A stretch of DNA of 64,000 nucleotides. Origin: a virus. Positions within the stretch are counted from its first letter, which is position 1; every line of letters starts with the position of its first letter. Position numbers and translations under genes: made by a program. Positions 54,038 through 64,000 of this stretch are shown piece after piece. Where the stretch lies: positions 32,001-96,000 of IMG/VR virus record IMGVR_UViG_3300028920_000039, one strand, 5' to 3'. A model generated the notes under the pieces. It was not told the origin of the DNA. It saw nothing but the letters and a program-made list of their open reading frames with translations, and searched no databases.

Positions 54038-54766
54038 ATGGACCTCTATCGTTTACTACCTGAAATCATCAGGGCTAGGGATCGCCTAGCCAGTGGTGTT
54101 GGTCTGAACCTGGACGATCAGGAAACGATTCTTCAGAAGATCTTCTATGCTCTTGAAGAGGAATGTGACACCACTGATGATCTGACGATAGGGCTGTCGG
54201 ATCTGTATAACTTCGACACTTGCCCTCCACAGTACTTTCCGCTCTTAGAGTTGTTCCTAGGAACCCAGTGGCCTGCAGATTGGTCTGAAGAACGGCGCAG
54301 ATTGGTGCTCTCGGCAATTGTTAAGCTGTATCATACCTCTGGACAAAGATTGAGCTGGGTGGCCGTTCTCAACCTATTTGGCCACACTGGCTTCTTTCCG
54401 TGGGAGTTGTGGAAAGAGACCATATATGAAGACTTTGACTATTCGTTGTATGGAGCTGACGACGGGTCTTATTACTATCAGTATCATGCCGCTCGGATTG
54501 ATGTTCGTAACGTCAATAGAACCCTGCTCTCCTTGACGGATGAAGAACGCCAGATATTGGAGTACTTTCGTCCTATCCATGTCTTGTTTCGGCAGGAAGG
54601 CATCAACATTCCGCCAATGGCGTCAACATGTAAGAATCAATCTTCCGACACTTTCGAAGGTGATGCCGGCTACGCTTTGGAAGAGGAGCTTTCCTTAGTG
54701 ACTGATGAATTTTCGATAGTTGAATCGTGCAGGGCAAGATGTGAAACAGCAGTGGAGCCACCTTAA
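54038..54766 (+). CDS. baseplate wedge protein (gp7 / P2 gpI-like), copy 1
   Basis: follows gp6/J; [25 protein letters not shown]...G, YFRPIH. Confidence 0.65.
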
Positions 54767-56574
54767 TGGATCTGTATAGGCTACTACCCGCAGTGCTTCG
54801 CTTGAAGGACTCTGCCACTAAAGGCAGTGTTTCAGAAGGCATTATCGAGCGTTTAGTGTATGCACTTGAACAGGAGAGCGACGTCACCAATGATGAGGTT
54901 GCAGGCCTGCTTGATCTGATCAACGCTGATGAGTGCGATGGTCAGTATTTGTTGTATATCTCCTTAACGCTTGGCTTCGCTGTTTCAGATACCGACACTT
55001 CCCCTACTCTTGACTTTTCTCGTTGGTTTGTCAAGAACTTGATTTCCTTCTACAAGATCAAAGGCACCCACCCGTCATGGATCAAGCAGTGGTCCTACGT
55101 CGAGAACGAGCCCACTATGCGAGCGTGGGAGCTGTGGAAGGATGAGCCATATGAGAGGGGCCCTTACTATCGATACGGCGAGGATGAAGGTGACTACTAT
55201 CAGGGTATCATCCACGCTGCTCGGTTTGATCTGTATCGGTTGGTAGCCGGCAACCCCGTCTTTTTGTCAGTACTGGAAGCATTTCCCCATGTCAATCCGA
55301 TAGAGTGGTGTCGGCCCATCCATGTACTGCTCCGGAAGAACTACTATCTGACAACCATACGTGATGCACCTGACGCTAACCTCCAGGAGGATTTGGATCT
55401 CATCGCCGCCCTGCGGTTGTTAGATGAGATGGATCCGCCGGAAGATGAACTTTTCTTAGAGGTGCTATGCATCACTTCTTGTGAAACCTATTGTGAGCAG
55501 ACCGAAGAATCCGGTTGTATGACGGGTTGTGAGGTTGGTTGCGAAATAGGCATTGAGTGGCCAGGGCCGACAGGTGATACCGGTGATACAGGAATCGGTT
55601 GTCCGGCTTGCGAAGAAGCCATTATGTATGATGAGAACCAAGGAGCTCGTATTGCACAATTTGCAGTTGAGGATGGTGCTTGTTGGGAGGAAGGTGAAGA
55701 AGTTTGCTTGATGGTGCCTATACGCGACTTCATAGGGCAAGGCGTGATCACAGACATCGCGTACATCAGCTACAACGACGTCGTGTATCCTATTCTTGAG
55801 GTGGAATTTCATGGTCCTATACCTGACTTTACGGGGTTTGCTGACATAGGCATTGATCCAGGAGATGCTGATCATGGTACAGTTTGTCACGGAATGTGCA
55901 TCTGTCCTGCTTGTGAGGAAACGGAGATTCATGACTACAGTGCCGGTGGCGGAGGTTGGGTTGAGTTCAGAGCTTACCTGCCTCATTGTTGGGGTGTTGG
56001 TGAGACTGTTTGTGTCTACATTCCTGATCTTGGATACATGATTGAAGGGGAGATCAGTGCCAGACGGTTTGATGATCCATGGACCGTGTACCGTGTAGTG
56101 TCAGGCTCTCTCGGTTCCGATCCTACCGGATATGATGCAGTTGTGTGTCATGGGATGTGTCCTCCTCAAGGTGAGACAGGCGATACGGGCAATACGGGTG
56201 GGACAGGCGATACGGGCAATACGGGTGACACAGGCGATACGGGCGTTGGGGAAACCGGTCCTACAGGTTTGCAAGCAGGTCCGACAGGAGAAACAGGTCC
56301 GGCAGGCGGCACACGTGGTCAGACGGGTCTAACAGGAGATACAGGAGATACAGGAGATGATGGTGAGGATGGTGAGGATGGTGGGACAGGCGATACGGGT
56401 GACACAGGTCCGGTTTACAATCCTACCTTGCACAGTATGGATGTTATCATCAATTTGCGCCTAGACACCAAAGACTATCAGTATCTCCCTTGTAATGTAC
56501 AAGTGATACCTGGAACAGGAACCGGCACCTGGACTACTTGGGAAACAGGAACTGGTTGCCCGGCTCCTGCTTGA
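54766..56574 (+). CDS. gp7/gpI-like protein copy 2 with Cys-rich domains and collagen-like segment
   Basis: [20 protein letters not shown]; CITSCETYC...CMTGCEVGC; two CPACEE...VCHGMC units; G-X-T repeats. Confidence 0.7.
56170..56412 (+). repeat. collagen-like Gly-X-Thr/Asp repeat
   Basis: [18 protein letters not shown]...GDTGDTGP; 27-bp DNA repeat ACAGGCGATACGGGCAATACGGGT. Confidence 0.85.
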
Positions 56575-62362: not shown

Positions 62363-64000
62363 AGAGAACCCGTTGGCTGAACAATCCAATCTCCCATCCT
62401 TCTCGTTATCATCCTGTTTACCGAACTGACGAAGGCGAGTACAAGGTATTCAGGATGCGCGGTAAGAAGATAGTGATGGATGTCAACACTCTGGACCTTT
62501 TTCAACCACCAGACAACGGAGATCCGGTGGCTCCGCCGATGCCTGTCTTACCTCAGTTTGTTCGTCCTCACATGCGAACTATCAAGCAGTTGGCACTGAA
62601 TGTTACGCATGCTTGTCAGTTACGGTGTGACTACTGCTATCTGTCTCACTTTTACCCAGAGATGGAAGCCAAGATGGGTGTTGACACAGCTATCAGAGCA
62701 GTGGATGAGCTCTTTAACCACTCGGCACTGGATAAACTGCCTGACGATTACACAGGCAGGGGTCCAGGCATTTCCTTCTTTGGTGGCGAACCTCTTCTTA
62801 ATTTTCCTCTCATAGAAGCAGTTGTAGCACACGCGAGAAGCCGGTCAAAACACTTTAGATTCGGTGTTACCACTAACGGGGTAGCAGTGACACCTTCTAT
62901 AGCAAAATTCCTGGCAGAGAACAAATTCTCAATGATTGTATCGGTTGATGGCCCCAAAGCCTTACATGATAAGCACCGAAAGTTTCCTGATGGCAACGGT
63001 TGTTTTGATTCAGTAGTTGAAGGCCTGGAGATGTTGCGTGATGCTGGTGTTGAGAAAATCACTCTGCGTTCAACTTTCTTACCTGATGAAACAGAGCTGC
63101 TGGAGCGAACCAAGTATCTGAACGAACTGTGCGACAACAATTATGCTCAAAATGTTTCAATTGAGCCTGCTTGCTTATCGGAAGGCTGTGCTTTTGATGG
63201 TGAGGTGCGGTTCACGGTTGCAAATGTAAAAAAGCTGCAGAAGGAGTATCTTGTTGTTGCTGATTGGTTGGCTTCTCGAATCATTGATGATGAGAAAGCA
63301 CGGTTTCACAACATCATGTCATATGTGGATCGGTTGGTCAACAAGAAGCAGTATTGTACCGAGTGTGGTGCCGGGGTAGGTTTTTTGGCAGTTTCCCCTG
63401 TAGGCAAGATCTGTGCGTGCCATCGAGAGATGAATTCGGAGATTGGCGATCTTGAAAGAGGTGGTGTTTGTGAGAAGGCTCGAGCTCCGTGGTTTGACAA
63501 TAGATATTACCTTTGTCAGAAGTGCACAAGATGCAAGATTCGAAACCTCTGCGGAGGGCCATGTCGAGAACACAACATTACGGCAAAAGGTGATATGCAC
63601 ACTCCCGATCCTGTTTTTTGTGAGTTCTACAACATCTGGGCGAAGGCAGCAGTGTCGATTCTAGACCAAGTGGAGCACAAGAAGTTACAGGAGCTGTTTC
63701 CTGCTTACAAGAAACGACAACCTACCATAGTCAGGAAAGCTGTCGAGGAGGAGTACGCATTCGTTAGAGAAGCGGGTGGCTTTGGGGATATTGTGAGTAT
63801 AGGTGCTGCGGCTCGATGCTTGAAGCACGAGAAGCCAGATTGTCATATCACTTTGTATGTCCCGGGTGAATTCAAGAATGTGGTACAGCACTTGAAAGGT
63901 GTGGATGAGATGGTGAGTCTGGGTTCTCTACGTGAGTTGGTTGACGTCAGACGGAAGCGGGGCACACCTTTCAGTCGAGCCGATTATCCCTACTTGGAAA
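62359..64000 (+). CDS. radical SAM/SPASM protein fused to GT9-like glycosyltransferase (3' truncated; absent from ORF track)
   Basis: my translation from ATG 62359 has no stop to the window end: CQLRCDYC (62614..62637), FFGGEPLLNF, TTNG, SVDG...HD..R; SPASM CGAG...CACH...CTRC...CGGPC...C; then FVREAGGFGDIV...LK...PD..I. Confidence 0.9.
   Translation, partial: MKRTRWLNNPISHPSRYHPVYRTDEGEYKVFRMRGKKIVMDVNTLDLFQPPDNGDPVAPPMPVLPQFVRPHMRTIKQLALNVTHACQLRCDYCYLSHFYPEMEAKMGVDTAIRAVDELFNHSALDKLPDDYTGRGPGISFFGGEPLLNFPLIEAVVAHARSRSKHFRFGVTTNGVAVTPSIAKFLAENKFSMIVSVDGPKALHDKHRKFPDGNGCFDSVVEGLEMLRDAGVEKITLRSTFLPDETELLERTKYLNELCDNNYAQNVSIEPACLSEGCAFDGEVRFTVANVKKLQKEYLVVADWLASRIIDDEKARFHNIMSYVDRLVNKKQYCTECGAGVGFLAVSPVGKICACHREMNSEIGDLERGGVCEKARAPWFDNRYYLCQKCTRCKIRNLCGGPCREHNITAKGDMHTPDPVFCEFYNIWAKAAVSILDQVEHKKLQELFPAYKKRQPTIVRKAVEEEYAFVREAGGFGDIVSIGAAARCLKHEKPDCHITLYVPGEFKNVVQHLKGVDEMVSLGSLRELVDVRRKRGTPFSRADYPYLE

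Follow-up and report, generated by a model that had tools for sequence, protein, structure and literature searches.

We analysed a 64,000-nucleotide stretch of viral DNA (IMG/VR virus record IMGVR_UViG_3300028920_000039; hereafter the window), which corresponds to positions 32001–96000 of one 135,046-bp phage contig, nearly all genes lying on the plus strand. Towards its end, baseplate and fibre proteins carrying a Cys motif are encoded in one late-gene run with a fusion of a radical S-adenosylmethionine (SAM)/SPASM enzyme to a glycosyltransferase of family GT9, and related enzymes in other genomes lie close to tail proteins in which this motif is expanded to as many as 198 Cys. Our preferred reading, held with moderate confidence, is that these genes form a phage tail-protein maturation module, in which the radical SAM/SPASM enzyme modifies tail and baseplate proteins bearing C-[E/Q]-x-x repeats. 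An earlier note on this DNA had described a co-directional, mostly overlapping run of fibre proteins, a multi-glycosyltransferase/methyltransferase and the radical SAM-SPASM-GT9 fusion, and all of these elements are present: the run is co-directional on the plus strand and translationally coupled, its junctions being ATGA overlaps or gaps of 1–28 nucleotides (nt).

The evidence that carries this reading is the recurrence of enzyme and arrays together. Homologues of the fusion comprise 15 full-length proteins at 39–50% identity as well as unfused forms of about 445 residues (aa), and 6 viral and 34 metagenomic loci were retrieved with the enzyme alignment. Arrays were scanned for in six frames as Cys at a spacing of 4–5, and counts refer to the enzyme loci with 1.2 kb or more of upstream DNA, 17 once redundancy is removed. 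Eleven of these 17 contain giant arrays of 30–198 Cys that end 75–2,562 bp upstream of the enzyme gene (L008, L009, L015, L016, L020, L021, L023, L025/26, L027, L028 and L030). The window and L006/L012 have a short form, with 3+3 Cys located 6–7 kb upstream and the multi-glycosyltransferase gene lying between, and G002, a 163-kb relative, carries 18- and 25-Cys arrays on two gpI-like proteins 9–11 kb upstream.

The association also appeared in the reverse direction, as searching from the gpI-like domain returned only array-bearing proteins, and every locus with 3 kb or more of DNA downstream also had the enzyme. Screening 1.8 billion representatives with a profile yielded 1,449 gpI-like proteins, and Cys runs were present in 85 of the top 100 cluster representatives (the best 100 of 1,449). 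Using an alignment of array-free gpI-like proteins (A6) as the seed retrieved array-bearing loci only. More distant cellular homologues of the enzyme are preceded by small Cys-rich open reading frames (ORFs), as in ordinary clusters for peptides that are ribosomally synthesised and then modified after translation (RiPPs). The co-occurrence that the earlier note had put forward as a check is therefore what we observe, with the enzyme and Cys-array tail proteins found together across many genomes, those of dozens of unrelated phages and prophages, and on three tail-protein scaffolds.

The repeat composition of the relatives defines the unit as C-[E/Q]-x-x, which replaces the SCxxxC motif that the earlier note had considered relevant. 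Glu or Gln follows Cys in 195 of 198 cases in L021, 186 of 188 in L025, 100 of 109 in L020 and 76 of 80 in L008, and the two residues are used about equally (78 Q vs 72 E in L025). The next position is chiefly Thr, Val, Ala or Ser and the last chiefly Gly, Ala, Ser or Thr, with five-residue units occurring occasionally among the four-residue ones. At the DNA level, the arrays repeat in tandem, with periods between 12 and 153 nt. Before the arrays runs a recurrent acidic strand of alternating hydrophobic residues, [DE][DE]-L-x-[IV]-x-[IV]-[ST]-C, which may serve as an internal leader.

Two paralogous proteins carry the motif in the window. The first, a gpI-like baseplate protein of 242 aa (54038..54766, plus strand), has a short C-terminal Cys motif, SCRARCET, at 54728–54748; the second, a gpI-like baseplate/fibre protein of 602 aa (54766..56574, plus strand) with collagen and tail-fibre PHROG matches, is 37% identical to the first (alignment A2), with which it shares a gpI-like N-terminal domain. 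In the 602-aa protein, this domain is followed in order by the acidic beta-strand motif, six Cys at period 4 (55468–55551), two Cys-rich knob modules and a Gly-x-Thr collagen stalk (56164–56415). The assignment to P2 gpI is supported by a Tail_P2_I match above threshold in the 242-aa protein (31 bits, cutoff 20.6), by the position of the gene directly after that of baseplate J and by a gene order that is kept in related loci. In the orthologues L049, L006, L051 and P0107, the motif keeps its place immediately behind the gpI-like domain, which in the 602-aa protein is also immediately ahead of the collagen stalk, and in the G002 orthologue of the 602-aa protein the array likewise directly precedes the collagen region. 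In orthologues of the 242-aa protein (L016, L008, L052, G002), the corresponding C-terminal site holds C-[EQ]-x-x arrays of 16–72 Cys. Since the motif keeps its position in orthologues and expands to 16–198 Cys in relatives, its short form in this phage is not a product of chance.

Arrays are found on three unrelated tail scaffolds. The gpI-like carriers are baseplate proteins of myovirus-type contigs; other arrays lie inside gpJ/megatron-like tail-tip proteins (L028, L030, L061, L063, L064), and others again are on a 1196-aa protein encoded after the tape-measure gene (L021, L025, L027, L062). In every gpJ-like and post-tape-measure locus, the arrays are accompanied by the enzyme. Some of these loci are on contigs of metagenome-assembled genomes binned as Acidobacteriota or Planctomycetota, or beside bacterial ABC-transporter genes, which suggests that they are prophages. 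No NCBIfam family covers the arrays: the L020 array matches TIGR04117 weakly (19.4 bits, cutoff 50), and six other arrays gave no TIGR04117 match.

Two observations concern the detection of such repeats. Long spurious antisense ORFs occur on the minus strand, 760 aa over the capsid gene (window 34795–37077) and 1305 aa over the 198-Cys array (L021 845–4762), and under naive longest-ORF gene picking antisense ORFs mask the arrays in L021 and L023, so that simple ORF-based annotation might miss arrays of this kind. Conversely, a 15-nt tandem repeat at window 14601–14738 (ORF 14074–14931) encodes a linker of about nine PAEEP units within a small CxxC...CxxC protein; read in a different frame, the repeat resembles a run of Cys units (CGRAS) and produced a false positive in naive array scans.

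The enzyme itself is encoded at 62359..64000 on the plus strand, where the gene runs off the window's end; in the full contig it is complete, with a length of 794–803 aa (L001:332–2743, reaching window-equivalent position 64743). Its CxxxCxxC motif, at window position 62614, corresponds to C95/C99/C102, which are invariant in 16 sequences of 32–53% identity, as are seven SPASM Cys (C345, C363, C398, C401, C407, C411 and C430), and the Pfam Radical_SAM profile matches with an expectation value (E) of 5e-19. An AlphaFold2 model of the radical SAM part (mean local confidence, pLDDT, 86.7) has CteB as its best match (Foldseek E 5e-24). In VIA-align it superposes on CteB over 373 residues in the model range 34–446, with a Z of 34.5 and a root mean square deviation of 2.7 Å, whereas the alignment to the sulfatase maturase anSME (Z 28) starts only at model residue 83. 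The N-terminal domain of the modelled enzyme would thus correspond, at least partly, to the leader-binding domain of CteB.

Among NCBIfam families the enzyme scores highest with PapB (194 bits, cutoff 340), followed by QhpD (188/453), nif11-peptide maturase (186 bits), SCIFF (166/425), CcpM (136/500), anSME (91 bits) and the CXXX-repeat family TIGR04115 (84.7/350). The first five of these are all maturases of thioether or Cys-peptide type. On these scores we place it in a separate new clade of the ranthisynthase-like group, as a member of no named family. Sequence and model together indicate that it belongs with the thioether-forming peptide maturases, apart from both the sulfatase maturases and the radical SAM enzymes that modify DNA. 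A sulfatase-maturase reading is ruled out by the 91 bits for anSME vs 194 for PapB and by a Z about 6 units under that of CteB.

The C-terminal domain of the fusion matches the GT9 family (PF01075, 33.3 bits, cutoff 22), and its AlphaFold2 model (pLDDT 91.4) adopts a GT-B fold that in Foldseek matches WaaF, 3TOV and WaaC at about 1e-12 (8.5e-13 to 1PSW). By profile, the domain is closest to the lipopolysaccharide (LPS) heptosyltransferases WaaC/WaaF, with E values from 9e-19 (3TOV) to 1e-16, and is more distant from TibC (E 0.057), which in the Foldseek list ranks 13–16 with TM-scores of 0.51–0.56; sequence and fold rank therefore agree in placing it nearer the LPS enzymes. By analogy, it may still work like TibC despite this distance, as TibC, which has this fold, glycosylates surface-protein repeats. 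The D..H..G region, a nucleotide-sugar-binding motif, is conserved in the GT9 alignment. The domain here differs from WaaC, WaaF and TibC in being fused to a radical SAM enzyme and in four conserved C-terminal Cys (C..PC ... C...C; within L001:1700–2743), whose arrangement points to a small metal finger; an iron finger is present in TibC.

In at least 15 proteins GT9 and the maturase are fused; in 11 loci GT9 is the next ORF, and in L015 it is displaced by two genes. Proteins that alternate in this way between being fused and being neighbours typically share a pathway, which supports the partnership claimed by the earlier note. Because most GT9-bearing loci lack a collagen region, it is with the array protein and not with the collagen stalk that GT9 is consistently paired.

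Between the fibre proteins and the fusion, the window encodes a second candidate glycosylation enzyme of 1428 aa (58076..62362, plus strand), composed of a Maf/MptE-like domain (aa 1–260), four tandem GT8-like modules (about 263–1240) and a SAM methyltransferase (1241–1428). Its Pfam matches are GT8 and, at the C-terminus, Methyltransf_24; the GT8-like modules are paralogous, giving internal repeats at E 1e-12 to 1e-42 in segment-wise BLAST, and the Maf/MptE-like domain stays under threshold (PF01973, 20.3 bits vs 34.6, E 5e-4) while covering profile positions 25–169 of 171. The enzyme occurs in four of five collagen-bearing loci (the window, L006, L005 and G002; not L051) and in none of 15 collagen-less loci, a correlation consistent with an accessory enzyme linked to collagen-bearing fibres. 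The connection that the earlier note drew between this multi-glycosyltransferase and collagen stands as a correlation of co-occurrence, drawn from related loci that are not independent of one another.

These observations can be arranged into a stepwise proposal. The starting point, read from sequence, is that both gpI-like proteins carry, behind their structural domain, an acidic beta-strand and then an array of C-[E/Q]-x-x repeats, which is short here and grows to as many as 198 Cys in relatives. A CteB/PapB/QhpD-type enzyme would then probably dock on the pre-array strand and modify the repeats in the host cytoplasm before assembly. We lean slightly towards a thioether (ranthionine) as the product, joining the Cys sulfur to the side-chain carbon that adjoins the carbonyl of a neighbouring Glu or Gln, in register i+1, i+5 or i−3, each of which is possible; the array would thereby become a series of small covalent rings. 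Whether the fused or adjacent GT9 glycosylates this substrate too, perhaps at the frequent Thr or Ser in positions 3 and 4 of the repeat, is to our mind evenly balanced. More speculatively, and with rather less weight, the Maf-like/GT8 enzyme with its methyltransferase might glycosylate the collagen-like stalk where the fibre has one, this phage included. The likely benefit of such processing would be a covalently stapled fibre base or shaft, resistant to proteases and redox change.

Known enzymes provide close parallels for the predicted chemistry. PapB forms its bond between Cys and the carbon alpha to the side-chain carboxylate of an Asp or Glu, the two residues being adjacent or up to six apart (PMC10739248). 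QhpD makes Cys–Glu and Cys–Asp thioether links in the protein QhpC, and CrpC, reported in 2026, installs ranthionine links on CrpA, a protein of 29 kDa with Cys repeats and a C-x-x-Q/D motif (PMC13692751). Both pairs resemble the module in that a SPASM radical SAM enzyme acts on a protein instead of a short peptide; they differ in having cellular substrates (a dehydrogenase subunit and an archaeal protein), no glycosyltransferase partner, no virion context and no arrays of such length. The resemblance to PapB and its substrate PapA (freyrasin, NF047865) lies in the best NCBIfam score and in Cys-to-acidic links within tandem repeated motifs, which are PapB's; the motif here is C-[EQ]-x-x and not C-x3-D, Gln is as common as Glu, and the substrate is a structural protein. 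The ranthipeptide maturase CteB (SCIFF; PDB 5WGG/5WHY, TIGR03974) shares the fold including the N-terminal domain, the CxxxCxxC motif and the seven-Cys SPASM domain. In the SCIFF core, Cys recurs at period 4 with Gln or Lys after Cys. Unlike the 45-residue peptide CteA, the substrate here is a tail protein of 240–1400 aa with up to 198 sites, and the enzyme is fused to a glycosyltransferase. The CXXX-repeat system (TIGR04115/TIGR04117) likewise places Cys at every fourth residue beside a radical SAM/SPASM maturase; that named system is uncharacterised, our sequences score below both of its cutoffs, and the repeats here are part of phage tail proteins.

Mycobacteriophage glycosyltransferases reportedly modify their own phages' structural proteins, on C-terminal extensions of capsid and tail-tube proteins, as Freeman and colleagues are said to have described in 2023; those enzymes belong to other glycosyltransferase families and are associated with neither a radical SAM enzyme nor Cys arrays. 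Searching the literature on phage tail fibres and baseplates, radical SAM, thioether, CXXX and ranthipeptides, we found no description of a system such as the one proposed here, the nearest match being a cyanophage paper that lists a radical SAM 'antibiotic' gene only. The known kind would be SPASM radical SAM protein crosslinking, and the phage-tail setting would be new; particular to the module, compared with published systems, are the C-[E/Q]-x-x unit, the gpI-/gpJ-like carriers, the near-obligatory and often fused GT9 and the collagen-linked Maf/GT8 enzyme.

Several points weigh against this proposal, which is built on gene neighbourhood and homology. The enzyme falls below the curated cutoff of every named maturase family, and its reaction is therefore not transferable by equivalence. 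The 'SCxxxC arrays' of the earlier note are present in this phage as Cys motifs, for which 'arrays' is a generous term, since these motifs of 2 and 6 Cys are very short; the enzyme is encoded 6.8 kb away from them. For 3 of the 17 enzyme loci (L005/L013, L018 and L031), no array was found in the DNA available, and array-free gpI-like proteins exist (P0080, P0094, P0116, P0168, P0200). Regarding glycosylation, no GT9 was detected in the array-bearing loci L051 (3179–4384), L061 and L063, which do have the maturase, so some lineages seem able to do without GT9; the candidate GT9 acceptor sites, Thr/Ser in positions 3 and 4 of the repeat, are frequent and not conserved; and the correlation of the Maf-like/GT8 enzyme with collagen is confined to one clade, so that its data points are not independent.

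Of the other explanations, the one that survives best, although we consider it unlikely, is that the arrays are metal- or iron–sulfur-binding or disulfide-knot elements of the fibre, and that the enzyme performs other chemistry (epimerisation, Cys oxidation or C–C coupling) or aids folding. An iron–sulfur cluster in the phage lambda tail-tip protein gpL provides a precedent. The repeats are packed with Cys and carboxylates, both classic ligands of metals, the short array in the window's clade sits exactly at the base of the collagen triple helix, where a trimer-stapling knot would be apt, and for modified CrpA a role related to metals is suspected by those who studied it (PMC13692751). However, Gln replaces Glu freely, as the 78 Q vs 72 E of L025 illustrate, which fits the skeleton of a radical acceptor better than a carboxylate ligand, and we favour a Cys–Glu/Gln thioether over a metal site because of this free exchange together with the 1:1 pairing of Cys with Glu or Gln. 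The nearest relatives of the enzyme by sequence and fold are, moreover, all thioether formers, and the presence of a dedicated maturase beside arrays on three scaffolds argues for covalent processing. The knob modules of the fibre are a separate matter: lying between collagen segments and bracketed by conserved Cys/His motifs (GC[PA]ACE ... CW..G[DE].VC ... V(I)CHGxC), they are seen in the window protein at 54766–56574, in L049 (10001–12490) and in L006 (2015–4420), and may represent domains stabilised by metal or disulfides, separate from the C-[EQ]-x-x arrays.

We regard it as improbable that the radical SAM-GT9 fusion and the multi-glycosyltransferase instead act off the virion, on host envelope glycans (LPS core heptosylation, superinfection exclusion), on a separate glycosylated RiPP or on DNA, with their position in the tail operon being incidental. 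Phage glycosyltransferases often modify DNA or host O-antigen, and the closeness of GT9 to WaaC/WaaF (E 1e-16 to 9e-19) compared with TibC (E 0.057) also speaks for such a role, as do the 7-deazaguanine genes QueC and FolE, located 3.3 kb downstream of the fusion. Against this stand the fusion of GT9 to a peptide-maturase-type radical SAM enzyme in at least 15 proteins and its adjacency in 11 more loci, as well as the fact that the enzyme pair accompanies arrays on three tail scaffolds, including prophage tail modules without Que genes. In addition, no small precursor-peptide ORF takes the place of arrays at these loci, and no DNA- or sugar-modifying radical SAM family gives a better match to the radical SAM domain than the peptide maturases do. 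The QueC/FolE block itself (L001:6031–7714, window-equivalent 68031–69714) consists of QueC, GTP cyclohydrolase I (FolE) and a phosphoribosyltransferase (PRTase)-like gene; it looks like a 7-deazaguanine (preQ0-type) pathway, probably for modification of the phage DNA. We reject a DNA-modification reading of the enzyme, as its affinities are with peptide maturases, and QueC and FolE belong to a separate downstream block that prophage-type loci lack. A 281-aa protein encoded downstream was considered as a third component and rejected, having no family match and no similarity to the equivalent gene of siphophage-type loci.

Weakest, and very improbable in our view, is a full armouring of the virion, in which the same enzymes would crosslink the major capsid protein (MCP) through its SCDPAC tail and a cluster at 17–27 kb would add further modifications: the tail FSCDP[PA]C is kept in the window and three relatives of 80–92% identity, and so is under selection, and the 17–27 kb cluster does encode two GT2 glycosyltransferases, FkbM and DUF268 methyltransferases and a sulfotransferase, but the tail is missing from six other MCPs (78–84% identity) and from G002, which has arrays and enzyme, it lacks both the acidic beta-strand pre-array motif and an E/Q acceptor, and no co-occurrence of the cluster with the system was seen or testable. 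The MCP is of gp23 type (35581..37044, plus strand), its C-terminal 8-residue extension being SCDPACPA (37018–37041), and all 120 listed homologues, the closest at 92% identity, carry a precomputed PF07068 match. As a substrate of the enzyme the tail is not supported, and its distribution marks it as lineage-specific and unlinked to the enzyme. The earlier note was accordingly correct that the capsid protein ends in an SCxxxC tail (FSCDPACPA) and that a glycan/sulfation gene cluster lies at 17–27 kb; membership of the system is not borne out for the tail, found only in the window and three close relatives, and nothing ties the cluster to it, so that both are probably outside the system. Its broader proposal of RiPP-type radical SAM chemistry on structural proteins retains the support of gene co-occurrence and enzyme identity, from which we infer the chemistry, and loses its extension to the capsid and the glycan cluster; 'armouring' of the whole virion over-reached, as the evidence concerns tail and baseplate fibres only.

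The remaining genes of the run are all on the plus strand. A baseplate J-like wedge protein of 682 aa (51988..54036; Pfam Baseplate_J, PHROG 219 at E 4e-47) directly precedes the gpI-like genes, as it does in L008, L016 and L049, and its gene is the anchor of the module in the baseplate operon. Downstream of the 602-aa fibre protein lies a Cys-rich protein of 288 aa (56579..57445) with 18 Cys that are not periodic; it has no Pfam, PHROG or NCBIfam match and by BLAST is not conserved in related loci, and is possibly part of the fibre tip. The next gene, whose start overlaps the preceding stop (ATGA), encodes a protein of 201 aa (57442..58047) with no family match in the libraries scanned, Pfam and PHROG among them. 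Elsewhere in the window, at 40102–41343, a 413-aa protein contains about seven tandem 22-residue repeats of leucine-rich type (NQLTSLQGAPxEVGGxFxC); its homologue in L006 (1380–2021), 54% identical, belongs to the baseplate module there, where the array-bearing gpI-like gene comes immediately next. The motif D-P-I-E-Q-A-I-D-M-L recurs at the C-termini of this protein and of an otherwise unrelated one at window 38610–39503.

Returning to the proposed maturation of tail proteins, we suggest tentatively that in many tailed phages part of the fibre is a polymer of thioether rings, for which a fused radical SAM/glycosyltransferase enzyme processes tens to about 200 units per protein; as tentatively, such a fibre might represent a new class of covalently crosslinked, glycosylated virion appendage, with RiPP machinery operating at protein scale on a virus particle. 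If the chemistry is true, phage tail fibres would join QhpC and CrpA on the very short list of proteins with RiPP-type thioether crosslinks, and would provide the first case of a substrate of this kind on a virus particle. The module would also provide a natural radical SAM enzyme that handles up to about 200 sites per substrate while tethered to a glycosyltransferase. Annotators would have reason to seek these arrays, as their GC-rich repeats generate long antisense ORFs that hide them in naive longest-ORF gene picking. For phage structural biology, the crosslinks would offer a new explanation for fibre stability and host recognition.

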